Program-made: the position numbers and the translations under genes | Assembly (NCBI GenBank): GCA_018060985.1 | Contig: JAGOUZ010000002.1 | Span: 26,396 to 90,395 of the forward strand | Direction: 5' to 3' | From: Minisyncoccota bacterium | Lineage (GTDB): Bacteria > Patescibacteriota > Minisyncoccia > Phycocordibacterales > SBAW01 | Length of the DNA stretch: 64,000 nucleotides | The notes under the pieces: generated by a model | What the model saw: the letters and a program-made list of their open reading frames with translations, nothing else | Database searches by the model: none | What the model was told of the DNA's origin: nothing | Shown: positions 14,347 through 51,154 of the stretch, in pieces | Layout: each line of letters opens with the position of its first letter | Position numbering within the stretch: position 1 is the stretch's first letter

Positions 14347-14964
14347 TTACACCAAAACAGCATACACGACAACGCGCTGGTCGTAGCTTTTTACCTCATT
14401 ATTCCAATCTCCTGTGCATGTAATTAAATTAAGCCGTGGACGGTCATCGCGGTTAAAAACGCGCTCAAGAGGCACGGCCTCACGAGGGTAGGAAATTACA
14501 CTTTCCACTTCAAACTGTTGCTCAGTACCATCGCTTGCAACCACAGTAATCAAATCGCCCTGTTTTAATTCTTCAATATGCTTAAACACGGCGTCCATAC
14601 CAAATCCATTGTCTAAGTGTCCGTCTATAACGGCACTGCCGCGCGCTCCAGGCACGGGGCCATAGCGATACCAGCCCACGTCGGTGTAGTTGCTAGGTAC
14701 CGCCATGTTCCCGCTTTTGCCTAAACCCACATGCTGGACTTTGGCATCAATCCCAAGCGTTGGTATCACTAGGCGGTCGGGGAGCTCTGTCGGCTCTGCC
14801 TCAACTACAATAGGGGACGCAGTCTGCTCTTCGGGTATAGAAAGTTCTGCTTCGGGCGAAAAGAGGACCGCACGCGCAAGCGTTGTCATAAACACAATAA
14901 AAGCTGCGGCGGTAACCGTTGCCACCGCGATATTGGTAACGTTTTTGGTCATGGTGGTATACAA
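14347..14964 (-). CDS. Sortase (transpeptidase; N-terminal TM anchor)
   Basis: Catalytic-domain signatures: VIDGHLDNGFG (His) and NLITCTGDW (TLxTC Cys motif). 205 aa. Confidence 0.8.
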   Translation of the reverse strand: MYTTMTKNVTNIAVATVTAAAFIVFMTTLARAVLFSPEAELSIPEEQTASPIVVEAEPTELPDRLVIPTLGIDAKVQHVGLGKSGNMAVPSNYTDVGWYRYGPVPGARGSAVIDGHLDNGFGMDAVFKHIEELKQGDLITVVASDGTEQQFEVESVISYPREAVPLERVFNRDDRPRLNLITCTGDWNNEVKSYDQRVVVYAVLV

Positions 14965-15007: not shown

Positions 15008-15226
15008 CTATTCTCGTACTCCCTTGCGGGTTAGGTACGTACCACCGACAAGCGCGATTCCGGCCGCGGCACTAAGAAGCAAGATATTTGCTGCAGTATT
15101 GCCGCCCGCACCAGTCTCCGGTACGCCAGGAGTGGTTACTTCAGGGGTTGTGGTCTGCGCGCTAGCTGCGCCTGCCAAGAGCAGGGAAGCAAGGGCGAAC
15201 GTACTTACAATTTTTTTAGTGTTCAT
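15008..15226 (-). CDS. Minimal sortase substrate: signal peptide + ~15-aa Thr/Pro-rich mature segment + VPETG sorting signal
   Basis: 72 aa: MNTKKIVSTFALASLLLAGAASA|QTTTPEVTTPGVPETG|AGGNTAANILLLSAAAGIALVGGTYL|TRKGVRE. Sec signal, then (L/V)PxTG motif, hydrophobic span and cationic tail. Lies immediately upstream of and co-directional with the sortase. Confidence 0.65.
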   Translation of the reverse strand: MNTKKIVSTFALASLLLAGAASAQTTTPEVTTPGVPETGAGGNTAANILLLSAAAGIALVGGTYLTRKGVRE

Positions 15227-28955: not shown

Positions 28956-31436
28956 ATGGCAGCGGAAAAAAAACAACCCGAAAATAACGGACGGGCCGAT
29001 GGCGGAAGTGGTGTCGTAAGCCGCAACATCTCAACCGAGATGCGCGAGGCGTACTTGGACTACGCAATGAGCGTTATCACCTCGCGCGCCCTCCCTGATG
29101 TGCGCGATGGCCTCAAACCCGTGCACCGCCGCATTTTGTACGCCATGCACCGCATGGGTCTTACGCCGCAGGCGCGCTTTAGAAAGTCGGCAACCGTAGT
29201 CGGCGAAGTGCTCGGTAAATACCACCCGCACGGCGATGCTTCTGTATATGACGCAATGGTAAAAATGGCGCAGGACTTTGCAATGCGCTACCCGCTGGTA
29301 CTTGGCCAGGGTAACTTTGGCTCAATCGACGGCGACGCCGCTGCAGCGATGCGTTACACCGAGGCAAAAATGTCTCATGTGGCAGGCGAACTCCTACGCG
29401 ATCTTGAAAAGGATACTGTCGAGTGGCGCGCCAACTACGACGGCACAATTAAAGAGCCGGCCGTGCTCCCAGCCGCCGTGCCCAACATTTTGCTTAACGG
29501 TACGCTCGGTATTGCCGTTGGTATGGCGACCAACATCCCGCCACACAACCTAAACGAACTTTCAAACGCACTAACTCATTTGATAGAAAATCCTGCGGCT
29601 ACGACCGAAGATCTGATGGAGTTTGTTACGGGGCCGGACTTCCCAACAGGATCAATCGCATTTAATAGGAAAGATCTGCTCCACGCCTACTCCACAGGCA
29701 AGGGCGGCGTAGTGGTGCGTGGTCATGCAGAGATTGTTGAGGGTAAAAAGGGCGACTACCAGATTATTATTACCAGTCTCCCGTACCGCGTTAACAAAGC
29801 CGAGCTCCAGATACGCATTGCCGACCTGGTGCACGACAAAAAGATCGACGGCATCCGCGGCCTGCGCGACGAGTCTACGCGCGACATTCGCGTCGTTATT
29901 GACCTTAAGCAAGGCGCCCAGCCTCAAAAAGTTTTGAACTTCCTCTACAAGCACACCCAGCTGGAAGACACCTTCCACTTCAACATGGTGATGCTCGTAG
30001 ATGGCATACCGCAGACGATGTCGCTGAAAGGCATCCTCCAGGAGTTTATTAAGCACCGCCAAGTGGTGGTGAAGCGCCGCACGCAGTTTGACCTTACTAA
30101 GGCGCAGGACCGCGAGCATATCCTCCTTGGCCTTAAGAAGGCGCTCGACCATATCGACGAGATCATCAAGACCATCCGCGCATCAAAAGATGTTGCCGAT
30201 GCACACGCAAACTTGATGAAGAAGTTTAAGTTCTCCGACCTCCAGACAACGGCGATTTTGGAAATGCGCCTCCAGAAGCTTGCTAACCTTGAGCGCAAAA
30301 AGATAGAAGACGAGCTTGCCGAAGTACAGGCCCTCATTGCCGAACTGACTGAGCTTTTGAAGAGCGAGAAGAAGATGCTCGGCGTTATTAAGACCGAAAT
30401 TACGGAGATCGCTAAGAAACACGGCGATGACCGCGCAACCAAAATTGTTAAAGGGCCGGCCGGCATTATCAATGTCGAGGACTTGGTGCCAGACGAAGAG
30501 CAGGTCTTGGTGGTTACCGCAGGTGGCTACGTTAAGCGCACCAATCCAGACGAGTACCGCAAGCAGAAGCGCGGCGGCGTTGGCGTAATCGACCTCAACA
30601 CTAAGGAGGAAGACTTTGTAACGAACTTCCTTACGACATCGGCCCACAGCGACCTGCTGTTCTTTACCGACGTGGGCAAGGCCTACCAGATAAAAATGTA
30701 CGAGCTCCCCGAGGGTAAGCGCTCAACTAAGGGCAAGGCTTTGGTGAACTTCCTTTCGATAGGCGGGGAAGAAAAGGTGACCGGCGTGCTTGCGATGCGC
30801 AAGAACGAAAAGCAGGGAGAGAAGTTCCTCTACATGATCACCAAGCAGGGTGTTGCTAAAAAGGTAGATGCAACGGCCTTCCACGATGTGCGCCGCAGTG
30901 GCCTGATTGCGATTAAACTCCAGAAAGGCGACGAACTTATTGGCGCACTGTTTGTAGAAAAGGGTGATGAAATATTCCTCTCGTCTGCAAAGGGGCAGTC
31001 TATTAGATTCAAAGAGTCTGACATCCGTGTAATGGGCCGCGCAGCGGGCGGTGTACGCGGTATGAAGCTCAGTGGCGGGGACTTTATTGTCGGCGCCGAT
31101 GTAGTGCCAAAGGGATCGAAAGACCTTGAAGTTCTTGTAATCTCGCGCGGCGGCTACGGCAAGACATCGCCGGTTAAAGAATATAAAACACAAAAGCGCG
31201 GCGGCTCGGGTATCCGCACCATTAAGGTAACGCCTAAGACAGGCCCACTGGTTGCTGCAAGCATCATTTCTAAAGAAGAGGGTGTAGGTGCCGACGAGAT
31301 GGTAGTAATGAGCAAGAAGGGCCAAGTAATTCGCACGGGCCTAACCGAAATCCCAAGCCTCTCGCGCTCGACTCAAGGCGTCCGCGTGATGAAGCTCCAT
31401 GATGGTGACGCAATCGCAAGTTTCGTTTGCCTCTAA
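28956..31436 (+). CDS. gyrA: DNA gyrase subunit A
   Basis: [35 protein letters not shown] (active-site Tyr region). C-terminal beta-pinwheel repeats (…GGVGV…GGVRGM…GGSGIRTIK…). 826 aa. Confidence 0.95.
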
Positions 31437-31437
31437 A

Positions 31438-31830
31438 ATGATCGATAAAATTGGGTGGCTGCTTGTACAAGACCAAAAGGTGCTCATGGTACGTAGCCAG
31501 AGCAAAGATAAGTTTTACGCACCGGGCGGCAAGCGCGAGGCAGGCGAGAGTGACGAACAGGCACTCGTGAGAGAAATTAAAGAAGAACTTGGTGTAGATA
31601 TTGTTCCTGCAACCATTAAACATCTACAAACATTTAAGGCTCAGGCACATGGTCAGCCAGAAGGTGTTTTTGTGCAGATCGCTGGCTACGGCGCAGACTA
31701 TACGGGCGAGCTGCAGCCCCAGAGCGAAATTGAAGAAATGACCTGGTTTACCAGCGCCGACTACGAACGCGCAACCGAACCCGGCAAGCTTATTTTGTCG
31801 TGGCTTAAAGAACAAGGTTTAATACGCTAA
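31438..31830 (+). CDS. NUDIX hydrolase
   Basis: Nudix box GGKREAGESDEQALVREIKEELGV. Start at internal Met MIDKIGW. Confidence 0.75.
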   Translation: MIDKIGWLLVQDQKVLMVRSQSKDKFYAPGGKREAGESDEQALVREIKEELGVDIVPATIKHLQTFKAQAHGQPEGVFVQIAGYGADYTGELQPQSEIEEMTWFTSADYERATEPGKLILSWLKEQGLIR

Positions 31831-32075
31831 TGCATAACGCCCTTCCGCCTCTGCCACCAAACGCGCCTAAAGTGGGCGAAGTATATACGCACTACAAAGG
31901 CAATCTATATAAAGTAGTAGGTCTCGCTCTCCATTCAACCGAAGAGTGGGTGGTGGTGTACCAAGCAATGTACGACAACCCCGCAGCGGAACTATTTACC
32001 CGTCCGCTAGCGGAGTGGCGCGAGGTGGTGGAGTGGCAAGGGGCACACGTAGAACGTTTTATAAGGCAGAGTTAA
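31830..32075 (+). CDS. DUF1653-domain protein
   Basis: 81 aa. YTHYKGNLYKVVGLA…EEWVVVYQAMY pattern characteristic of DUF1653. Confidence 0.6.
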   Translation: MHNALPPLPPNAPKVGEVYTHYKGNLYKVVGLALHSTEEWVVVYQAMYDNPAAELFTRPLAEWREVVEWQGAHVERFIRQS

Positions 32076-32149
32076 TTCGGCGGGCGCATTCTTTTTTGCA
32101 GTAACGCATGGTATTGTCCACCTAGTTGTCATTGCAGGAGCGTTCCCCG

Positions 32150-32292
32150 ATGTCAGTCCGACAAGAACCACACAACGGCCCCATGCTACTTTTGGCAATC
32201 GTTGTCGCGGTTGCTGTTCTGGGCGTAGGCTGCGCCTTTGTGGCCTACATCGACCCAGAGGTCATGCAATTCTTTAACCGCATTTTAAACTA
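32150..32292 (+). CDS. Hypothetical 47-aa single-TM peptide
   Basis: AGGAG 10 nt upstream. Product MSVRQEPHNGPMLLLAIVVAVAVLGVGCAFVAYIDPEVMQFFNRILN. A second similar sORF (MTRVIKTHTDIIGVIALAALVVTLYSFVGAYMLS…) lies at about 32375-32524. Confidence 0.25.
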
Positions 32293-32527
32293 AGCGGTTC
32301 CTACCGGCCCGCGGGACATCAAGTCTCGTGGGCCGTTCATGTAAGAATCACCCTACCTGTGCGTATATATAAGTATGACGAGGGTAATTAAAACGCATAC
32401 TGACATCATCGGAGTCATCGCCTTGGCGGCTTTGGTGGTTACCCTGTACTCATTTGTGGGTGCGTACATGCTCTCTGCGTCCGACGCTCCGATACAGGTT
32501 GCTGCATCCGAGCGCTCGCGCTAATTT

Positions 32528-33088
32528 TTGCGGTACAATGGTGAGGTGATAGAGGGCTCTTTTCTGATACCAGCGGAGGCGCTTCGCGCTGCACAACTGC
32601 ATGAGGGTATGCAGGTGGCCGACTTTGGTGCGGGCTCGGGGTTTTTTACCCGCGAGGCCGCGCGCGAGGTGGGCGAGGGCGGTGCGGTATGGGCGGTGGA
32701 TATTAACCGCGAGCTTCTCTCGCGTATCAAGACCCTGGCCGAGGCCGAGGGGCTTAAAAATGTTGAGATAGTACAGGGCGATGCCGAGGTGGTGGGAGGC
32801 ACGCACCTGCCCGACGCCCACTTCGACCTGGTTATTGCCTCTAACATTCTTTTTGCGATCGAAGATCGGGGTGAGCTGGTTGCAGAAGTGCGCCGCGTAC
32901 TCAAACCGCATGGCCGGGCGCTCATTATCGACTGGTCAGGCTCGTACAATGGCCTCGGGCCGCACGAGGACCACGTCATTACGCAGGCTGCTGCGCGTAA
33001 ACTTTTTGAGGATCACGGGTTTGTTTTTGGTGGTGTTGCGCCCGCTGGTAGCTACCATTGGGGATTTATTGTTCGTAAAAAAACCTAA
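32528..33088 (+). CDS. Class I SAM-dependent methyltransferase
   Basis: Motif I VADFGAGSGFFT, post-I VWAVDIN, motif …LKPHGRALIIDW. 186 aa. Confidence 0.75.
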   Translation: MRYNGEVIEGSFLIPAEALRAAQLHEGMQVADFGAGSGFFTREAAREVGEGGAVWAVDINRELLSRIKTLAEAEGLKNVEIVQGDAEVVGGTHLPDAHFDLVIASNILFAIEDRGELVAEVRRVLKPHGRALIIDWSGSYNGLGPHEDHVITQAAARKLFEDHGFVFGGVAPAGSYHWGFIVRKKT

Positions 33089-33109
33089 AAGGGCGCATTA
33101 TATAAGGCA

Positions 33110-34411
33110 ATGGGAATGTCGACCTTTCAAATTATCGTTCTTGGTGTGTGCGCCGCGCTTATTTTAATTGGCGTCGGCGTCTTTGCGTCGTTTGGAGGTC
33201 TTGGCAACGAGGATACTGTAGGCGACGTAACGATCTGGGGCACCGTCGACTCTTCGATTATGGATCGGCTCATCAGCACCATGCTGAGCGGTGACAAGGC
33301 CTTTTCAGGAGTAGATTACGTCGAAAAAAGTCCTACGACGTATCATGCCGACATAGTTAATGCGATGGCCACAGGCAAAGCTCCCGACCTGGTGTTTCTA
33401 AGCCAGGAGGAAATCGGGATTTTTGAAGACAAGCTTCTTATCATTCCATATGGCATGGTCTCCCAGGCCACTTTTCTCAGTTCGTTTATAGACGAGAGCC
33501 AGGTATTTTTGACCGACGAAGGAGAGTTAGCTCTTCCGTTTATGGTTGACCCAGTAGTGATGTATTGGAATCGCGACCTTTTTTCATCGGCTGGCGTTGC
33601 GTCTCCACCCAAGTTTTGGAACGACTTTCTGACACTCGCTCCCAAAATGACTTCGCTCGACGCGGGGGCCAATATCACCAAGAGCGCCGTAGGTTTGGGG
33701 CAGTGGCAAAACGTCGCCAATGCAAAAGCAATACTATCGACCCTGTTTATGCAGGCGGGGGACAAGGTAGTCGTACGTAAAGGGAGTGGTGACCTCGAGG
33801 TCGTGCTGGGTGATGTGCCAACTAACGCACCATCAAATCCTGCCGAATCTGCTCTTCGTTTTTATACCGAGTTTACGAACCCCTCCAAGACCACCTACTC
33901 GTGGAATCGTACGTTACCACTCTCAACGACGGCTTTTGTAGCGGGCGATGTGGCAGTCTACTTCGGCTTTGCGAGTGAGTACCCAAGTCTTGCAGCTCGT
34001 AACCCAAACCTGCCCTTCGCTGTAGCTCGTGTTCCTCAGGTTGAGGGTTCTTCTATTAGAGCTACCTACGGTCGGCTCACCGGTATGGTGATCCCACGCA
34101 ACGCAAGCAACCCTAACGGGGCGGCACAAATCGCTCAAAGGCTCTCAAGTGCCGAGTCTGTTTCTACACTCTCTGCCTTAACGGGTCTGCCGCCGGTGCG
34201 CCGAGATGTTACGATAAAGACGTCAGACAACGCAGCTATGGGTGTCTTTGTAGAGTCGGCGCTTATTGCGCGCGGATGGGTAGATCCAGATTCCACAAAG
34301 ACAGATGCCATCTTTAGAACCATGATAGAATCGGTGGTAAGCGGCAGGCTAGACTCAGGTGGCGCAGTAAACGAAGCCTCGCGGGCGATGGAACAATTGC
34401 TGAAGAAATGA
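33110..34411 (+). CDS. Extracellular solute-binding protein (ABC-type, family 1-like) with N-terminal TM anchor; orphan (no permease/ATPase adjacent)
   Basis: 433 aa. SBP_bac_1-like features (…ESALRFYTEFTNPSK…DVAVYFGFASEYP…). Its stop overlaps the start of the first pilin-like gene (ATGA). Confidence 0.55.
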   Translation: MGMSTFQIIVLGVCAALILIGVGVFASFGGLGNEDTVGDVTIWGTVDSSIMDRLISTMLSGDKAFSGVDYVEKSPTTYHADIVNAMATGKAPDLVFLSQEEIGIFEDKLLIIPYGMVSQATFLSSFIDESQVFLTDEGELALPFMVDPVVMYWNRDLFSSAGVASPPKFWNDFLTLAPKMTSLDAGANITKSAVGLGQWQNVANAKAILSTLFMQAGDKVVVRKGSGDLEVVLGDVPTNAPSNPAESALRFYTEFTNPSKTTYSWNRTLPLSTTAFVAGDVAVYFGFASEYPSLAARNPNLPFAVARVPQVEGSSIRATYGRLTGMVIPRNASNPNGAAQIAQRLSSAESVSTLSALTGLPPVRRDVTIKTSDNAAMGVFVESALIARGWVDPDSTKTDAIFRTMIESVVSGRLDSGGAVNEASRAMEQLLKK

Positions 34412-34803
34412 AAAAAATACTTATTTTGCTGTTCGCTTTTTCTATACTTGTGCCATCCTTCGCGCCTTCTATAGCGTTTGCTCAGGGTGGTGGAGGTGGT
34501 GGCCCGACGGGTGGCATGGGCGGCAAAGTAACGCTCGAAAATCCGCTTGGCGATGTAGATACCTTTCCAAAACTTATCAAAGCCATTCTCGATGCGGCAT
34601 TTATTATTGGCCTGCCGGTAGCAGTGCTTTTTATAGTTATTGCAGGCTTTCGCTTTGTCTGGGCACGCGGCAACCCTCGTGGGCTTGATGAGGCAAAGCA
34701 CAATTTCCTCTATACGGTTATCGGTATCGGCGTCTTCTTTGGGGCATGGACACTGGCTAAGATTATCGAAAGTACCATAAGCGCCCTTGGCGTAGGATCA
34801 TGA
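34408..34803 (+). CDS. TrbC/VirB2-like (T4SS-pilin-like) small two-TM protein, paralog 1 (Gly-rich N-terminal segment)
   Basis: Signal peptide MKKILILLFAFSILVPSFAPSIAFA, a GGGGGGPTGGMGG tract, then two hydrophobic helices separated by ARGNPRGLDEAKHNF. Confidence 0.5.
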   Translation: MKKILILLFAFSILVPSFAPSIAFAQGGGGGGPTGGMGGKVTLENPLGDVDTFPKLIKAILDAAFIIGLPVAVLFIVIAGFRFVWARGNPRGLDEAKHNFLYTVIGIGVFFGAWTLAKIIESTISALGVGS

Positions 34804-35069
34804 AGCTTAGCGAACTCGTAAATCAGATAGTGGATCTTATTAACTCGGCAATCCCGGTAGTTGTTGGTGTTGCTCTGCTGTTTTATTTTCTCGCTATTAT
34901 CCGCTACATCTCAAAGGCGGGGGATGCCGGTGGAAAGTCCGAAGAAAAAAAGACCCTGTTGTGGGGCTTAATAGGTCTCTTTGTCATCTTTTCAATCTGG
35001 GGGATACTAAATTTGTTCGAAAATATGCTCTTCGGCTGCACCGTTTCCGGGCTTCACAGCTGTACATAG
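34800..35069 (+). CDS. TrbC/VirB2-like small two-TM protein, paralog 2
   Basis: 89 aa. Helix-loop-helix …IPVVVGVALLFYFLAIIRYI…KKTLLWGLIGLFVIFSIWGIL, similar to its neighbours. ATGA overlap with the upstream gene. Confidence 0.5.
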   Translation: MKLSELVNQIVDLINSAIPVVVGVALLFYFLAIIRYISKAGDAGGKSEEKKTLLWGLIGLFVIFSIWGILNLFENMLFGCTVSGLHSCT

Positions 35070-35157
35070 GCATAGGGTTCGCTCTTATTATCCACACCCC
35101 GATCTTGTAGGGCATGTGTGTGGTGCTAGTATGAAGACATACAAATTTAATAAAATT

Positions 35158-35511
35158 ATGAAAAAAACAGCACTTATCGGTTCTATATTTTTTGCACTTC
35201 CAGCTCTCGTTTTTGCTCAAGCTAAGCCAGAATTAAGCTATTTCGGAGAGTTCATTCAGGCCATTGGAAACTTTGTTAACATGTCGATACCGATCTTAAT
35301 CGGTATAGGTCTCTTGGTATTCTTCTGGGGTCTTATTCAGTACATCCGCAAGCCAGAGGCTGCAGAAGGCCGGAAGATTATGATCGCAGGTCTCGTTGGC
35401 TTGTTTATCATGGTATCTGTCTGGGGCATCATTTCTCTCGCACAAGGCATCTTCCAGGTAAAGGGCGACTCTAGCGACGTAAACACTCCAAGCATTCCGG
35501 ACCAGAAGTAG
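35158..35511 (+). CDS. TrbC/VirB2-like small two-TM protein, paralog 3
   Basis: Signal peptide MKKTALIGSIFFALPALVFA, then …IPILIGIGLLVFFWGLIQYIRKPEAAEGRKIMIAGLVGLFIMVSVWGII. Confidence 0.5.
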   Translation: MKKTALIGSIFFALPALVFAQAKPELSYFGEFIQAIGNFVNMSIPILIGIGLLVFFWGLIQYIRKPEAAEGRKIMIAGLVGLFIMVSVWGIISLAQGIFQVKGDSSDVNTPSIPDQK

Positions 35512-35529
35512 TGCGTTTACCTCTTACCA

Positions 35530-35784
35530 ATGGATGACATCAAAGAACTCCGCAACTTAATTGTTGCGGAGTTAATAGATCCAATACTCTATCTACTATT
35601 TGGCCTCGGCCTTCTGGTGTTTGTGTTTGGTGTGGCAGAGTTTATCTACGGTCTGAGCGCTCAAACCGAGGCGCGCAGCAATGGCAAAAAACATATGCTT
35701 TGGGGGTTAGTGGGTATGTTTATCATGATGACGGCAGTCTCGATTGTAAAACTAATAGCGCAGACCGTTGGAGGGAGCACCTAA
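35530..35784 (+). CDS. TrbC/VirB2-like small two-TM protein, paralog 4
   Basis: …ILYLLFGLGLLVFVFGVAEFIYGLSAQTEARSNGKKHMLWGLVGMFIMMTAVSIV, the same helix-loop-helix core. Confidence 0.5.
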   Translation: MDDIKELRNLIVAELIDPILYLLFGLGLLVFVFGVAEFIYGLSAQTEARSNGKKHMLWGLVGMFIMMTAVSIVKLIAQTVGGST

Positions 35785-35799
35785 GTATAAAAAAGAAGA

Positions 35800-35834
35800 A
35801 CGGCGGGCCCTCGTAAGGGTCCGCCGTTTTTTTG
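35800..35834. terminator. Bidirectional intrinsic terminator (after pilin array / after convergent NfeD-like gene)
   Basis: GGCGGGCCCT-cgtaa-GGGTCCGCCG flanked by TTTTTTT (plus) and a T-rich run (minus). Confidence 0.65.
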
Positions 35835-35852
35835 TGTCGCCCAGAAGGTACT

Positions 35853-36287
35853 TCAGCACGAGAGCCAGTAATGAAACTCGACTGGCTCTCCGGTCGCGGA
35901 GCGGACCTTTTCCGGCCAGAAGCTTTCGTCCCTGGTGTGGGTGGTCACTCCTGCTCTGATCTCGCCAACAGAGTTGGCAACTTCGATCAGGCCATCAAAC
36001 TGCCATTTGATGATGCATTGTCCGCGGGGGTTAACCGTGACCCATGTCCTGTCCAGCCTTGCCACGCGCATCGTGGTTTCGGACTCGCCGCCAGGGGTAC
36101 GACTGACGGTACCGTGCCGAGAGTTTCTCGGCCCGCTCCAGTACCAGTTCTCCTTGATGTAGGAGTATCCGTATACGATGGGGATTGCCCCCAAGAAGAG
36201 CGCCAAGGCGTGCCACTTGTAGCTCGAGACCTTGTGCAGCAGCGCCATCGCGGGGCTGGTGATAGTGTGCGGCTGTATTCTGCTCAT
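35853..36287 (-). CDS. NfeD-like short membrane protein (OB-fold C-terminus)
   Basis: N-terminal TM, then beta-rich C-terminus with QFDGLIEVANSVGEIRAGV (compare NfeD FDGELWDAVSEEGIEKGTRV). Immediately downstream of an SPFH protein gene. GC-rich. Confidence 0.4.
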   Translation of the reverse strand: MSRIQPHTITSPAMALLHKVSSYKWHALALFLGAIPIVYGYSYIKENWYWSGPRNSRHGTVSRTPGGESETTMRVARLDRTWVTVNPRGQCIIKWQFDGLIEVANSVGEIRAGVTTHTRDESFWPEKVRSATGEPVEFHYWLSC

Positions 36288-36295
36288 GTCCTACC

Positions 36296-37381
36296 TCATG
36301 TGGTGGGAGTGGTTGGTTTACCGCCACCCTTGCGTGCGCGTGCTGTTTGCACTCCGCGTCCGGCATCGCCGGCGTTGCGTAGTGCGCCCATGAGCGCGGG
36401 AGCAAGAGCTTGGATAGCGTCGTCTCCTTGAAGTGAGAAAATCTGCTTGGAAACGCTCTCCTTGTTGAGGATCATGAGCATCTCAAGCGCCCGTTCCTTG
36501 GGCATCTCGAGCTTCGCGGCCAGTCCTTCTGCGTCATTCGCGATTACCTCGCGGATGACAGAGGCGGCGATCGCCTGTTCGTAGTCGTGGTCGAACTTGG
36601 GCGGACCGAGCGTGCTCAGTTCGACCCGAAGCCCGAAGCGCTCCTCCAGACTATTGCCGAGCGAGTCTAGAGCTCCCCTGATGGGGGCGCCGTTAACCTC
36701 CTCGCCGACAAATGATCGCCCAAGCGACTCCTGGAGTTCGTCGACAGTCGCTTTCTCCAGGATCTTGTCGAGTGACTTGGTCAGGATGGCTTCATTGATG
36801 GCGTTTTCCACCACCTCTGCAAAGCCATCCGTGATTGCCTTCTCCTCCGTCCGCACGTAGAGCGGAAGCAGAGGAAGGAATGGGCCGTATTGCACGGTCC
36901 ACTTGAAGGTGACGCCGACGCCTCCTTTCGGAGCCGCCGCAGTTCCGCCTTTGACGACGAAACGTGACTCGTGTTCGAGGCTGATCGCTCGCAGGCTGAT
37001 GTAGTCGTCCTGCCGAAACCCCTCCCAAGGGTATTTGATATGAAGGCCTGGCCCCAATACGTGGAGTGCTCCGCCGAATAAACTGGTGAGCAGCGCCCCG
37101 GTGAGCTTTGGCACATTCGCAACAAATAGTTTGACAGTGCCAAGGACGAGGAATAACCACACCCCGAGCATTGCAAGCTGGAAGTACGGGGTCACGTCCA
37201 GTCGAATCGGCGCCGTCAGAATGAGGGCTCCGATAAAGCTGAGGAAAGGGAAGAGGATGAACAGACAGAAGAGGTAGACCACCACTCTGCCCGGCGTCGT
37301 TCCCGATGTTCCTGTAACCGCCACACCGTAGCTGGCTGATATTTCTCGTATCTCGTCACCAGTCAGTTTACTGATAGCCAT
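36296..37381 (-). CDS. SPFH/band-7 (flotillin/stomatin-like) membrane protein
   Basis: Two N-terminal TM helices, then SPFH-like core (…VTFKWTVQYGP…FGLRVELSTLGPPKFDHDYEQAI…) and a C-terminal coiled-coil/Gly-rich tail. GC-rich relative to flanks. Confidence 0.5.
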   Translation of the reverse strand: MAISKLTGDEIREISASYGVAVTGTSGTTPGRVVVYLFCLFILFPFLSFIGALILTAPIRLDVTPYFQLAMLGVWLFLVLGTVKLFVANVPKLTGALLTSLFGGALHVLGPGLHIKYPWEGFRQDDYISLRAISLEHESRFVVKGGTAAAPKGGVGVTFKWTVQYGPFLPLLPLYVRTEEKAITDGFAEVVENAINEAILTKSLDKILEKATVDELQESLGRSFVGEEVNGAPIRGALDSLGNSLEERFGLRVELSTLGPPKFDHDYEQAIAASVIREVIANDAEGLAAKLEMPKERALEMLMILNKESVSKQIFSLQGDDAIQALAPALMGALRNAGDAGRGVQTARARKGGGKPTTPTT

Positions 37382-37536
37382 GTTGCTTCTCTCAAGGTTC
37401 AGGTATTTCTACGGCTCCAGTTCTGCGGTTGCAGAAAGGCCGTTATTCCACTTACTATTATAGCATACAAAATACCATTTTGTCAAGCAGAATAGCCTTA
37501 TCAAATAAGGCTAAAAACTGCTCTGTGCGTTACATG

Positions 37537-37618
37537 TGCTGGGGAGAGGACTCGAACCTCCAAGCCTTGCGGCACCAGTTCCTAAGACTGGCGCGTATAC
37601 CAATTCCGCCACCCCAGC
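37537..37618 (-). tRNA. tRNA-Leu (anticodon TAG)
   Basis: Reverse complement GCTGGGGTGGCGGAATTGGTA…CCAGT-CTTAGGA-ACTGG plus long variable arm. T-arm GGAGG-TTCGAGT-CCTCT. Confidence 0.8.
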
Positions 37619-37661
37619 AAAAGGCACCCATCCTGCCACATGGCAGATTTTGTGTCCTTTG

Positions 37662-37734
37662 TGCGCCCAGTAGGATTCGAACCTACGACCTTCTCCTTAA
37701 GAGGGAGCAGCTCTACCAACTGAGCTATGGGCGC
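37662..37734 (-). tRNA. tRNA-Lys (anticodon CTT)
   Basis: Reverse complement GCGCCCATAGCTCAGTTGGTAGAGC-T-GCTCC-CTCTTAA-GGAGA…GTAGG-TTCGAAT-CCTAC-TGGGCGC-A. Confidence 0.85.
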
Positions 37735-37871
37735 AAAGTGAGGAAGATAAGAAAGCCGCGCTTTCTTATCGCCCCGAACGTGCGTCCATATCAAGCCAAG
37801 TGCAGATATGGGCGCAATAACAACAAAATACAACAAAAATCGCCCGCCCACAATTACGCAGGGAATTTTTG

Positions 37872-37959
37872 TGCCGGGGGTGGGAATCGAACCCACACGA
37901 GATTTTAAAGCCTCCCAGGATTTTAAGTCCTGTATGTCTACCAATTCCATCACCCCGGC
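37872..37959 (-). tRNA. tRNA-Leu (anticodon TAA)
   Basis: Reverse complement GCCGGGGTGATGGAATTGGTAGACAT-ACAGGA-CTTAAAA-TCCTG plus long variable arm. T-arm GTGGG-TTCGATT-CCCAC. Confidence 0.8.
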
Positions 37960-37965
37960 ATCGGG

Positions 37966-38037
37966 AGGCCATGGCGGGAATCGCACCCGCGTATTCAGGA
38001 TTTGCAGTCCCGTGCCTTACTACTTGGCGACATGGCC
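37966..38037 (-). tRNA. tRNA-Cys (anticodon GCA)
   Basis: Reverse complement GGCCATGTCGCCAAGTAGTAAGGC-A-CGGGA-CTGCAAA-TCCTG…GCGGG-TGCGATT-CCCGC-CATGGCC-T (U73 discriminator, typical of Cys). Confidence 0.8.
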
Positions 38038-48296: not shown

Positions 48297-49415
48297 ATGA
48301 AGACGCTTCGTGCGTGGCTGCCTGTTTTTGTTGTACTCATACTTCTTGCTGCACCACTAACTGTTGATGCGCAGAGCTACTCACCTCTGGTGCAGTGCGG
48401 TGTAGACGATGGTGGTAATGGCCCCATAACGTGCGACCTCTGCGACCTAGGCAAGCTGATGCAAAACATCATCAACTTCCTCCTTGTGGGTATTGTGGTA
48501 CCTCTTGCGGCCGTTATGTTCGCCTATGCGGGTGTACTGTATTTTACCGGCGGCTCAAACCCTGGCCGCATTACGCGTGCACATAAAATATTTAAAAACG
48601 TACTTATTGGGTTTCTTATTGCCATTTCTGGCTGGCTGGTCGTCAATACTATTATGACGGTAGTGTTTAGTAAGAGTTTCTTTGATGGTGGTAAATGGTT
48701 TGAACTTCAGTGTGTAGAAACAATAAGGAATAAGTCCGATGGCGACGTTCGCCTTGCTGGAACTAATTTTAATGATCTGATCAATACTATTCTTCCTGAA
48801 GCAGAGGCTCCCGAGTATGTTCGGCCAGAGACTCCTCAGAATGTTGTTGGGTACGACTCTGCCGGTAACCCTCTGGTTTGTCCTGGAGGATATTCCTATA
48901 ACGCCGAGTTGAATGCGTGCTTCAAACCCGGTGGGGTTGGAGGTGGTAGCGAGAGCGGCGATGGAGGTGGGGCAGTAGGTGGAGGCGTAGATCCTGTGCC
49001 GGCAAACCCTGGAACGCCGGTCAGTCCAGGCCCCTTTGTTCCCGTACAAGCCGACTACACGTTTACGTTCAACAGCGGTATCAACAAACAGACTCCCCAC
49101 GCTTCTTTAAAGTTAACCTCCATGCTTAACTGCATGTCCAAAATTGTGCCCGGTAATGTGGGGCGCATCTCATCTATTTCTGACAGCATGATAGTAAATG
49201 GCACCAGAACTTGGGCGCAGTGCAAGGCGGGACAGTGTCAGCACGTCACCAACTCCTACCATTACGGCGGATCTAAGTGCGGTAACCAGTCATATGCAGT
49301 GGATTTTGGCGATGAAGAAAACTACCTCTCACTTCTCCAGGCGGCTCAGCAGTGCGATGGCCGCGCTACAAAAGAGAGCGACCATGTGCATGTACAAACG
49401 GGCACCTGCAATTAA
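48297..49415 (+). CDS. Fusion protein: signal peptide + TrbC/VirB2-like two-TM pilin-like module + Gly/Pro-rich linker + C-terminal Zn-peptidase-like domain (LAS superfamily, M23/M15-like)
   Basis: N-terminus TCDLCDLGKLMQNIINFLLVGIVVPLAAVMFAYAGVLYFTGGSNPGRITRAHKIFKNVLIGFLIAISGWLVVNTIMTVVF is homologous to the 34.4-35.8 kb pilin-like family. C-terminus has HYGG…AVDFGDE and DHVHVQ (H…D…HxH zinc-site pattern). Confidence 0.5.
   Translation: MKTLRAWLPVFVVLILLAAPLTVDAQSYSPLVQCGVDDGGNGPITCDLCDLGKLMQNIINFLLVGIVVPLAAVMFAYAGVLYFTGGSNPGRITRAHKIFKNVLIGFLIAISGWLVVNTIMTVVFSKSFFDGGKWFELQCVETIRNKSDGDVRLAGTNFNDLINTILPEAEAPEYVRPETPQNVVGYDSAGNPLVCPGGYSYNAELNACFKPGGVGGGSESGDGGGAVGGGVDPVPANPGTPVSPGPFVPVQADYTFTFNSGINKQTPHASLKLTSMLNCMSKIVPGNVGRISSISDSMIVNGTRTWAQCKAGQCQHVTNSYHYGGSKCGNQSYAVDFGDEENYLSLLQAAQQCDGRATKESDHVHVQTGTCN
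48432..48720 (+). repeat. Direct repeat copy 1 (~289 nt) = pilin-like N-terminal module; copy 2 at 49554..49842
   Basis: Long near-identical stretches by eye, for example GACCTAGGCAAGCTGATGCAAAACATCATCAACTTC and TTCGCCTATGCGGGTGTACTGTATTTTACCGGCGGCTCA in both copies. Confidence 0.8.
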
Positions 49416-49445: not shown

Positions 49446-50531
49446 ATGAGGAAGGTCCTTCAGGTTCTTTATGTTTGTGCAGGGTTAGCTCTGCTCCTTA
49501 TACCTGTTGCAGCATACGCACAGGGTCTTGTCCCATGCACCGGTGCTATGACCTGCGACATCTGTGACCTAGGCAAGCTGATGCAAAACATCATCAACTT
49601 CATGCTTGTGGGGATTGCCGTGCCCCTTGCTGCCCTTATGTTCGCCTATGCGGGTGTACTGTATTTTACCGGCGGCTCAGATCCTCATCGCATTGCACGC
49701 GCACGTAAGATATTTAAAAACGTCCTGACGGGCCTTCTCATCGCACTCTCTGCATGGCTCGTTGTTAACACCATTATGACGGTGGTGTTCAGTAAGGACT
49801 TTTTCACTGATAGCAAATGGTTTGAGTTGCAGTGTGTCTCCAACACAACCGCTACACCTGGCCGTCCTGGGCGTCTGATCAATACTACATTTGATGATCT
49901 TATTGGTGTCATTCTGCCGGAAGTAGACCCGCCTGAATATACACGCCCTCCAACTCCTGTTGTGGTTGGTACAAATTCAAATGGTGTACCCATAAGCTGT
50001 CCGTCTGGCGCAACCTACGATCAAAAAAACCACACCTGTGTTGGCTCAGCCGGGGAGGTTACCCAGCCAGTCCCTGTCCCTGCCATTACTCCTGGTCCAT
50101 TTCCGCCGCCAGTCACTCCCTCGGGCCCCATTAGTGCGGGATCTTGCGCTCCCAATCCTGGTGCGTTTGGTGCTAACGCCAATCTAATGTCCTGCATATG
50201 CGGTGCGGAGAGTGGCGGTATAGCCAGCCGGCCTAGCGGTTCAGATATTATGTACAACGACCCAGGTCGCAGAGCCTTTTCATGGGGTTTGTATCAAATT
50301 AATATTTCCGTCAACCAAATGATGTGTCCTGGCCAGCCAACCCTTAACTGCCCAGCTGCATTTTCTGGTAAAAATTATTCCGCTCGGGTTATAAACGAAA
50401 CGCTCTACGCTGCTTGTGTTGCTGCGGCAAAAAATCCTAGTTGCAACACTGCTTCAGCAGCGTATTTGCTCAACCATACGCCAAATGGTGCCAAAAACTG
50501 GAGTACCTATGGCAAGTGTGTAGGTCGTTAG
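49446..50531 (+). CDS. Fusion protein: signal peptide + TrbC/VirB2-like two-TM pilin-like module + Pro-rich linker + C-terminal SLT-type lytic transglycosylase domain
   Basis: N-terminal module about 85% nucleotide-identical to the upstream paralog. C-terminus CGAESGGIAS…AFSWGLYQINIS…AYLLNHTPNG matches SLT catalytic ES and GLMQ-type motifs. Confidence 0.5.
   Translation: MRKVLQVLYVCAGLALLLIPVAAYAQGLVPCTGAMTCDICDLGKLMQNIINFMLVGIAVPLAALMFAYAGVLYFTGGSDPHRIARARKIFKNVLTGLLIALSAWLVVNTIMTVVFSKDFFTDSKWFELQCVSNTTATPGRPGRLINTTFDDLIGVILPEVDPPEYTRPPTPVVVGTNSNGVPISCPSGATYDQKNHTCVGSAGEVTQPVPVPAITPGPFPPPVTPSGPISAGSCAPNPGAFGANANLMSCICGAESGGIASRPSGSDIMYNDPGRRAFSWGLYQINISVNQMMCPGQPTLNCPAAFSGKNYSARVINETLYAACVAAAKNPSCNTASAAYLLNHTPNGAKNWSTYGKCVGR
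49554..49842 (+). repeat. Direct repeat copy 2 of the pilin-like N-terminal module
   Basis: See copy 1. Equal length and same reading frame. Confidence 0.8.
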
Positions 50532-50554: not shown

Positions 50555-51154
50555 ATGAAAACACTCACTATTGTAGGTCTAACCATCGCAGTGCTCGTTG
50601 GTCTTGGTGTTTTTTATATTCTTTCTCGAACGCCATCAACGGGTGATGCGCCTACCGACACAGGATTGTTCCCCACAGGTGGATATCAAAACGATGTATC
50701 AGTAGGGAGTGGTGGGACAGATGAGCCTGGGCAAGGGGGTACTAGTGGGTCTGACACGGGTGGCGGAAGCATTCAGCCGATAACAGAAAATTATTTTGAA
50801 GTTCAATCGCAAAGCGGCGGGCTCATTCGAGTAAAGGACTTTCGCAAGAGCGCCACTACTGTCGAAGATGATGTAAACAAGGGGACCTACTACCTTGCAG
50901 GAAATGATTTTGCTACTGCCGCATATACCCTTATGTACATCGAAGGCGATTCGAGTTTTACCATTACTATCTTTAGCGAACCCATAGGCGAGATGCGTCG
51001 CAAGGCAGAGATCGATCTTCTCGCCAAGCTCGGTATTGCAGAGCCCGTAGCCTGCAGTTTACGGTACGCAGTGTTGGTGCCAGCGAGCGCCAATGAGATA
51101 TATGCAGGTAGGAACCTGGGCTTCAGCTTCTGCCAGGGGGCCACACCGTTATAG
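50555..51154 (+). CDS. Hypothetical membrane-anchored Gly/Thr/Ser-rich protein
   Basis: N-terminal TM (LTIVGLTIAVLVGLGVFYIL), low-complexity G/T/S-rich linker, then about 110-aa globular C-terminus. No recognisable family. Confidence 0.35.
   Translation: MKTLTIVGLTIAVLVGLGVFYILSRTPSTGDAPTDTGLFPTGGYQNDVSVGSGGTDEPGQGGTSGSDTGGGSIQPITENYFEVQSQSGGLIRVKDFRKSATTVEDDVNKGTYYLAGNDFATAAYTLMYIEGDSSFTITIFSEPIGEMRRKAEIDLLAKLGIAEPVACSLRYAVLVPASANEIYAGRNLGFSFCQGATPL

Follow-up and report, generated by a model that had tools for sequence, protein, structure and literature searches.

The stretch of DNA analyzed here (the window) comprises 64,000 nt of contig JAGOUZ010000002.1 from a Minisyncoccota bacterium, and all coordinates are window positions. 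At 33110–35784, it carries five co-directional genes (open reading frame (ORF) listing); the first encodes a solute-binding protein (SBP), and the following four, P1, P2, P3, and P4, encode small pilin-like proteins. Together they form a conserved operon of an orphan, MalE-like, helix-anchored SBP and four dedicated hairpin proteins of the VirB2 type, distant from transport and secretion ATPases. The pilin identity of the small proteins and the existence of such arrays were already known or annotated. The searched literature did not contain the class-wide coupling with an SBP, the fixed composition of four orthologues, the conserved helix of the SBP, or the associated methyltransferase. We tentatively propose, with a probability of roughly 0.4, that the products make up a heteromeric VirB2-type membrane or pilus assembly, built by a type IV secretion system (T4SS) core encoded elsewhere, in which the SBP would be the carbohydrate-recognizing subunit.

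Organization of the locus

32528–33088, forward strand: class I S-adenosylmethionine (SAM)-dependent methyltransferase (Pfam Methyltransf_31/11/25, 1e-21 to 1e-18)
33110–34411, forward strand: MalE-like (CUT1-type) SBP, 433 aa (PF13416, PF01547)
34408–34803, forward strand: P1, VirB2/TrbC-type pilin-like protein, 131 aa (PF18895, PF04956)
34800–35069, forward strand: P2, pilin-like hairpin, 89 aa (PF18895, NF045849)
35158–35511, forward strand: P3, pilin-like hairpin, 117 aa (BLASTP paralogy to P2; third array position)
35530–35784, forward strand: P4, pilin-like hairpin, 84 aa, last gene of the array (PF18895; similarity to P2)
35794–35833, no strand assigned: intrinsic terminator, bidirectional, separating the array from the convergent genes (stem, ΔG, z-score)
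35853–37381, reverse strand: convergent 144-aa membrane protein and 361-aa SPFH/Band_7 protein (Band_7, 2.2e-07)

A preliminary description made from the letters of the window had listed an SBP and four small helix-loop-helix genes of 131, 89, about 117, and 84 aa, and all five ORFs were confirmed. The public gene call of the SBP starts at M3 and yields a protein of 431 aa. P3 has three possible starts, GTG at 35116 (131 aa), ATG at 35131 (126 aa), and ATG at 35158 (117 aa); the public gene call uses 35131, and the orthologues begin with MKK, corresponding to 35158.

The genes are translationally coupled. The SBP stop overlaps the P1 start in ATGA at 34408, and the P1 stop overlaps the P2 start in ATGA at 34800; both overlaps, and the co-translation drawn from them, had been noted in the preliminary description. 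Assembly errors were ruled out as their source, since Logan assembly SRR11088367 was 100% identical to window positions 29216–37572 (8357 bp), with identical gene calls, and equally tight junctions were seen in other species. The strong bidirectional terminator reported at the end of the array was also recovered. It has an 18-bp GC-rich stem between an A-run and a T-run, with a folding energy (ΔG) of -33.6 kcal/mol and z = -4.55, and none of 200 shuffled sequences folded as well. A simple terminator scan missed it.

The solute-binding protein

The SBP belongs to the type II binding proteins and resembles MalE; a conserved glycine-rich N-terminal helix holds it in the membrane. It matched the Pfam families SBP_bac_8 (PF13416, 1.6e-19) and SBP_bac_1 (PF01547, 4.2e-17), and it is named "extracellular solute-binding protein" by NCBI. 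With the AlphaFold2 model (pLDDT 80), the top Foldseek match was 5ci5 (2.8e-22), followed by many MalE structures, and TM-scores to MalE-type structures reached about 0.7–0.8. A profile search of PDB sequences also gave 5ci5 as the best match (2.8e-14), the solved relatives being distant by sequence.

The N-terminal transmembrane helix spans approximately residues 4–30, and a lipobox is absent. The N-terminal consensus is M-S-T-F-Q-I-I-V-L-G; orthologues start with M-[ST]-x-F-Q and continue with a glycine-rich hydrophobic segment (...GVGVFAxFGG). Residues F6, Q7, G21, G23, F25, and G30 of the helix were invariant in an alignment of 27 sequences. Column conservation, calculated for 77 sequences, was 0.58 in the helix, 0.60 in the globular domain, and 0.41 in the linker between them. 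Conservation of the helix at the level of the globular domain suggests a role beyond that of a plain anchor or signal peptide, probably specific helix–helix packing in the membrane. Many aromatic and polar residues of the SBP were invariant in the alignment as well, at most an indirect sign that a small-molecule ligand may be bound in the inter-lobe cleft.

Homologues of the SBP were found in 3057 clusters at E ≤ 1e-3 and in 1022 50%-identity clusters at E ≤ 1e-30 (1.84 billion cluster representatives); nearly all of those among the matches listed were full length, N-terminal helix included. Full-length orthologues with 54–74% identity occurred in metagenome-assembled genomes labelled Adlerbacteria, Paceibacterota, Parcubacteria, Minisyncoccia, and Patescibacteria.

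The pilin-like proteins

P1–P4 are divergent paralogues of the VirB2/TrbC T4SS-pilin family, small proteins with two hydrophobic helices linked via a short basic loop. The Pfam cut-offs are 26.6 bits for PF18895 (T4SS_pilin) and 27.9 bits for PF04956 (TrbC/VirB2). P1 exceeded both, with 51.6 and 33.6 bits, respectively, and P2 (39.7 bits) and P4 (29.4 bits) exceeded the cut-off of PF18895. P3 scored 19.3 bits with PF18895, below the cut-off; it nevertheless belongs to the family as a paralogue of P2 (BLASTP 1e-16, 36% identity over 73 aa). The BLASTP value for P2 and P4 was 9e-8, and the remaining pairs among P1–P4 were weaker than P2/P3. P2 also matched NCBIfam NF045849, the Mbov_0395 pilin-like conjugal transfer protein of a Mycoplasma integrative and conjugative element (ICE), with 40.3 bits vs. 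a cut-off of 40, and a protein identical to P1 is named "TrbC/VirB2 family protein" by NCBI. Started from each of the four seeds in turn, local jackhmmer runs converged on the same 342–343 ORFs. The strand of the SBP gene carried 341 of 342 family hits, nearly all of them within arrays, which argues for specific hits and not chance hydrophobic ORFs.

P1 consists of a Sec leader, a Gly-rich linker, and a two-helix hydrophobic hairpin. In its AlphaFold2 model, built with database homologues as the alignment, a leader helix and a disordered Gly-rich linker are followed by helices 53–85 and 90–127, joined by an RGNP loop; pLDDT of the hairpin helices was above 90. Two of the small proteins had been described as carrying signal peptides, and by inspection these are the Sec-type leaders of P1 (ending in AFA, before Q) and P3 (ending in VFA, before Q); P2 and P4 have none.

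The preliminary description had also placed the small proteins with TrbC/VirB2 pilins and not with type IV pilins, and the Pfam, NCBIfam, and PHROGs searches bore this out. The GFxxxE motif of type IV pilins was absent by inspection. Holin or phage origin was rejected as well: no PHROGs holin match was obtained, and the NCBIfam holin_LLH match of P2 (E = 0.039) was far below the cut-off.

In most P1 orthologues, a single Cys immediately precedes the first helix ('SFCGL') and another stands at the very C-terminus (e.g., L039, 1582–2022; L011, 8550–8957). Since both termini are predicted to lie outside the cell, a disulfide could link them, which recalls the cyclized T-pilin/TrbC. P1 of the window has neither Cys, and P2 of the window has two C-terminal ones.

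Conservation of the operon in relatives

A scan of one genome per GTDB species gave 80 loci with SBP identities from 74% down to 26%, 70 of which were informative, having at least 1.3 kb downstream of the SBP gene. The linkage of SBP and pilin genes on which the preliminary description was built proved to be kept in 67 of the 70 informative loci: at least two pilin-like ORFs lay directly 3' of the SBP gene on the same strand, and the number of such genes ranged from 2 to 7. At least four were present in 63/70. Between the SBP stop and the start of the first pilin gene, the median gap was 2 nt, although the local caller takes the longest ORFs and some apparent overlaps at the junctions may be over-extended starts.

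Three lineages were gene-called, and each showed the methyltransferase, the SBP, four small genes, and then convergent genes; Pfam T4SS_pilin was assigned to positions 1, 2, and 4 and never to position 3. The order P1-P2-P3-P4 was found in 37 species by one-shot phmmer assignment. Variants of the array differed by one more P3-like copy or by an additional 71-aa gene at the front. An extra pilin-like ORF of 71–78 aa stands between the SBP and P1 genes in L006 (9317–9532) and at the same position in L010, L011, L018, L019, L025, and L026; the window lacks it. P3 orthologues were third and P4 orthologues last in most arrays, and each of the four positions had its own conserved motifs and leader status in the alignments. 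Mean identity to the window proteins was 35–43% for P1–P4 and about 56% for the SBP. Fixed order together with position-specific motifs points to distinct roles in one complex rather than to variable copies. The four genes are old, distinct orthologues and no recent duplicates, a pattern that fits non-interchangeable subunits of a single assembly and not the host-adaptation or antigenic-variation idea of an earlier survey (PMC12102498).

The methyltransferase gene is part of the conserved unit and is probably the first gene of the operon. In the window it ends 21 nt 5' of the SBP gene. In nearly all related loci a homologue was located at most about 900 nt upstream of the SBP gene, and in L006 it overlaps the SBP start. 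NCBIfam gave only generic matches to this methyltransferase, all under the cut-off.

In all relatives examined, the cassette lay between gyrA and rbfA/infB, 0.6–8 kb from gyrA and 3–6.8 kb from rbfA/infB as measured from the SBP gene (sometimes inverted), and it was contiguous throughout. A mobile element or ICE remnant was ruled out by this conserved housekeeping setting and by the GC content of the region (0.49–0.53), which is within the range of the window (0.47–0.57).

The three exceptions to the SBP-pilin order were the most distant homologues, L083, L085, and L087, in which the SBP has a lipoprotein signal (LSGC). In L083, five pilin-like genes are located upstream of the SBP gene instead. 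L085 (6161–9559; labelled Moraniibacteriota) and L087 (6341–9323; labelled 'Bdellovibrionales') have an SBP of 26% identity with the methyltransferase gene directly upstream and no pilin genes, which indicates that the methyltransferase-SBP pair is older or wider than the linkage to pilins. In L085, the SBP gene is followed by a gene for a 112-aa two-helix membrane protein; then comes, in both L085 and L087, a protein that by eye resembles a peptidoglycan amidase.

The SBP is an orphan across this range. No permease or ATPase was found beside it in the 80 species-level loci, and no ORF with an ABC (ATP-binding cassette) ATPase signature (Walker-A plus LSGGQ) was found in 87 loci, the large Walker-A ORFs being IF-2 only. 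Pfam scans of about 35 window ORFs gave no ABC permease or ATPase, VirB4, VirB6, or VirD4; the remaining large ORFs were judged housekeeping from N-terminal sequence only. The absence of permease, ATPase, VirB4, and VirB6 genes, stated in the preliminary description for the 64 kb, extends, as does that of VirD4, to the flanks of the 87 loci.

Relation to type IV secretion systems and published arrays

Family members do occur in true T4SS clusters. In locus L088 (1–11941), a remote P1 homologue, P0304, is part of a six-gene T4SS_pilin array beside genes for PrgI (VirB3), TrbL_3 (VirB6), and TraC-like/P-loop_TraG (VirB4) proteins. This array is divergent from the T4SS core (PrgI, TrbL_3). The VirB4-like gene of L088 appears to be broken up: two unrelated ORFs separate its 141-aa fragments (P-loop_TraG/AAA_10, TraC-like), possibly as the result of an insertion or of a frameshift artefact of long-read sequencing.

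For Patescibacteria, tandem arrays of the VirB2-like kind were already described in 2023 and 2025 (PMC10633639, PMC12102498, PMC12857230). A survey of 3,035 genomes counted 2,474 virB4 genes, with VirB4 in most genomes; VirB2-like pilins were present in 1,948 VirB4-containing assemblies, near virB4 in 1,135 and elsewhere in about 800, and 441 arrays of 2–11 pilin genes were recorded (PMC12102498). The pilin series of the T4SS cluster of Southlakia is essential (PMC10633639; reviewed in PMC12857230). P1–P4 fall under the array definition of PMC12102498, namely, at least two VirB2-like genes of low identity in tandem or one non-pilin gene apart; at the Pfam cut-off, which it does not reach, P3 would pass for a non-pilin gene.

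The searched literature, these three papers included, contained no mention of an SBP in the context of a Patescibacterial pilin array, and no report was found there of the SBP-pilin coupling, the fixed order of four orthologues, the conserved SBP helix, or the association with a methyltransferase. The preliminary description stood in part: the family of the small proteins, the coupling, and the orphan status of the SBP were upheld, whereas the type of array had already been published and the methyltransferase had been missed.

Neighboring genes and other features of the window

Of the two convergent genes beyond the terminator, which recur downstream in many relatives, the one for the 144-aa membrane protein had no family match. 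A similar convergent pair (membrane protein and SPFH/Band_7 protein) was found downstream in L006 and L081, with direct phmmer matches in a few loci only. Its recurrence downstream of the array in distant relatives makes a functional link to the cassette possible. Four tRNA genes (Leu-TAG, Lys-CTT, Leu-TAA, and Cys-GCA) lie at 37536–38037 on the reverse strand, between the Band_7 gene and rbfA. The whole window has 13 tRNA genes, and an Rfam scan for a riboswitch that could reveal the ligand returned tRNAs only. In its gene content the window is ordinary chromosomal DNA. Pfam scans of the window identified MurJ, sortase, signal peptidase, ParB, RelA/SpoT, and SerRS; LepA, FtsA/FtsZ, GyrA, IF-2, GlmS, ClpB, and TopA were assigned by N-terminal sequence or from Pfam annotations of the corresponding proteins in related loci.

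Two further genes with a T4SS_pilin domain were found at 48297–49415 and 49446–50531, followed by a gene at 50555–51154. Their products are paralogues of 372 and 361 aa with a Sec leader, a Cys-rich stretch, and an N-terminal T4SS_pilin domain (34 and 42 bits, respectively) followed by about 250 C-terminal residues. By eye, the C-terminal part of the first has a pattern H..D...HxH, like LAS/M15 peptidases, and that of the second has 'CGAESGG...GLYQIN', like lytic transglycosylases. Wall-hydrolase identity was not supported for either C-terminal part by Pfam or by searches of PDB sequences; from these motifs, the two proteins may be wall hydrolases with a pilin-domain anchor.

The sortase gene (14347–14964, reverse strand) adjoins an ORF of 72 aa (15008–15226, reverse strand) that comprises hardly more than a signal peptide and a linker rich in Thr and Pro, together with the sorting motif 'VPETG', a hydrophobic helix, and a basic tail; the ORF resembles a minimal sortase substrate.

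Possible function of the operon

In the reading we favor, Parcubacteria/Paceibacteria-type Patescibacteria carry the genes as an envelope operon on the chromosome, inherited vertically, in the order methyltransferase, SBP, P1, P2, P3, and P4. The four hairpins would be inserted in the membrane, their termini on the outer side and the basic loop on the inner side, and P1–P4 would form one heteromeric assembly of defined composition. This may be a short pilus of the VirB2 type; alternatively, it may act as a tip or priming complex, as the four minor pseudopilins do in type II secretion. The T4SS core present elsewhere in most Patescibacteria genomes would probably assemble it. The SBP would join the assembly through its transmembrane helix as the ligand-recognition subunit, and its ligand would most likely be a carbohydrate on, or released from, the surface of the host cell. 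Binding could serve for recognition of the host or for attachment to it, or it could control gating of the apparatus; the methyltransferase may have one of the components as its substrate. A role of the SBP as an adhesin or tip protein of a surface filament and not as part of a transporter, as suggested in the preliminary description, would agree with the conserved helix and with the lack of nearby permeases. A more far-reaching version seems very unlikely to us, namely, a new kind of nutrient-capture or host-recognition organelle of transporter-poor bacteria in which the MalE-like receptor is built via its helix into a four-paralogue VirB2-type filament or conduit and the host-derived carbohydrate is recognized, and possibly imported, through T4SS-type hardware in place of an ABC transporter, a bacterial parallel to the archaeal bindosome.

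Several points weigh against the proposed assembly. The proposed contact between the SBP and the pilins is hypothetical, and the flanks of the 87 loci contained no T4SS core gene near the cassette. A Foldseek search of PDB with P1 gave no match at E ≤ 0.001, either to solved pilins (VirB2, TraA, TrwL) or to other entries, and the PDB-sequence profile search with P1 gave nothing below E = 0.8, small hairpins being poorly discriminated in both. The invariant aromatic residues of the SBP are equally expected of an ordinary sugar-transport receptor. The methyltransferase-SBP pair without pilins in L085 and L087 indicates a pilin-independent function of the SBP family. Finally, broad synteny across the class takes in gyrA, the methyltransferase, the SBP, the array, rbfA, and infB, and the linkage may thus be partly inherited gene order.

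The SBP could instead be an ordinary receptor for an ABC importer encoded elsewhere, its position before the pilin genes reflecting envelope co-expression or inherited gene order; we consider this somewhat unlikely. PrgZ of the conjugative plasmid pCF10, an orphan SBP that uses the chromosomal Opp permease, is a precedent. The complete MalE-like fold with CUT1-type Pfam matches, the strong conservation of the SBP with its many invariant aromatic and polar residues, as a ligand-binding receptor should show, the synteny of the wider neighborhood, and the pilin-less pair in the outgroups all agree with a remote importer. Cognate SBPs are, however, usually adjacent to the permease or ATPase in at least some lineages, and none adjoins the SBP in the 80 species loci, from 74% down to 26% identity. 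A remote importer also leaves the conserved transmembrane helix unexplained, sits poorly with gaps near zero or overlaps between the SBP and the first pilin gene, and has to be reconciled with the reported dearth of transporters in Parcubacteria (PMC4508563). If the SBP merely served such an importer, the locus would be a minor curiosity of synteny.

The cassette could also act on the cell's own envelope. The T4SS_pilin domain would then be a general two-helix membrane anchor or scaffold, and the ligand of the SBP would be a precursor or fragment of the wall. The target of the cassette, possibly in concert with the SPFH protein, would be the wall or S-layer of the cell itself. The fusion of the domain to long extracellular regions in the two other window genes speaks for this, as do the outgroup SBP genes followed by a small two-helix membrane protein and the amidase-like protein, the recurrence of the SPFH/Band_7 gene downstream, and the housekeeping neighborhood around the cassette. 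The wall-hydrolase calls, however, rest on motifs read by eye, with nothing found for the fused domains in Pfam and PDB searches, and family members are present in true T4SS clusters (L088); we regard a self-directed role as rather improbable.

A new uptake device in which the SBP passes a host-derived carbohydrate to a conduit of VirB2-like hairpins, alone or within a T4SS and with no ABC transporter, is very unlikely in our view; it would parallel the archaeal bindosome, with VirB2-type pilins as its basis. We know of no precedent for VirB2-type proteins as an import channel, and the operon has no energy-coupling component. On its side are the consistently orphan SBP, the tight co-translation of five extracytoplasmic or membrane proteins, the eight transmembrane helices of four distinct hairpins in addition to the conserved SBP helix, a transporter-poor and auxotrophic lineage (PMC4508563), and the precedent of Sulfolobus SBPs mounted with pilin-like proteins, which, however, still rely on ABC transporters (PMC3047682).

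Parcubacteria-type CPR (candidate phyla radiation) bacteria lack most biosynthesis and have few transporters (PMC4508563), and the question addressed by the cassette is how they recognize hosts and acquire nutrients. The only genetic study in the phylum found a T4SS and its pilin array to be essential and did not explain their role (PMC10633639). The SBP ectodomain is soluble and expressible; its ligand can thus be identified and would point to what is sensed or handled by the VirB2-type apparatus. The conserved order also alters the reading of pilin arrays: this one, at least, appears to be a set of fixed, non-interchangeable subunits and not a pool of variable copies.

Comparison with known systems

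The operon shares with the VirB2-like arrays of Patescibacteria (Southlakia epibionticum, PMC10633639; PMC12102498) the tandem arrangement, similar structure, divergent PF18895/PF04956 sequences, occurrence in a monoderm CPR bacterium, and the presence of members with and without a Sec leader. The published arrays, however, are located in or near T4SS clusters or were only counted, and they were read as variable copies possibly aiding host adaptation. Here, the SBP and the methyltransferase lead the array, T4SS genes are distant, and four orthologues stand in fixed order across many genera. The Southlakia array lies within its T4SS cluster, whereas the cassette described here lies between gyrA and rbfA/infB.

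With the TrbC/VirB2 conjugative pilins of Gram-negative T4SS (PF04956), P1 shares a score above the cut-off, the leader, the two hydrophobic helices, and the short basic loop. Those systems have one major pilin, in contrast to the four heterologous subunits here, which have no adjacent VirB4, VirB6, or VirB5. Polymerization of P1–P4 is hypothetical, and the searches with P1 detected no significant similarity to solved pilin structures.

The CUT1 sugar-binding proteins (MalE, GacH, and Tlet_1705/5ci5) have the type II periplasmic-binding fold and the SBP_bac_1 and SBP_bac_8 domains in common with the SBP, with only 14–21% identity to the solved ones. In the SBP, a conserved N-terminal transmembrane helix replaces the lipobox or cleaved signal, and a permease or ATPase is never adjacent. 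The SBP and its homologues form a subfamily of their own, and every named member of it comes from Patescibacteria.

In the archaeal bindosome (Sulfolobus Bas), sugar-binding proteins are likewise linked, in function and genetically, to small pilin-like proteins in a cell with no outer membrane; the Bas proteins and the Sulfolobus SBPs carry class III (type IV pilin) signal peptides and need a PilB/PilC-like pair (PMC3047682). The operon differs in that its small proteins are VirB2-type, the N-terminus of its SBP (MSTFQ...) has no G/F...E prepilin motif, and no ATPase is nearby. Binding proteins that couple an external ligand to type IV secretion or conjugation are represented by ChvE-VirA in the sugar sensing of Agrobacterium and by PrgZ of pCF10. 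ChvE signals via a sensor kinase, PrgZ feeds a remote permease, and neither is encoded in an operon with pilin genes, as the SBP described here is.

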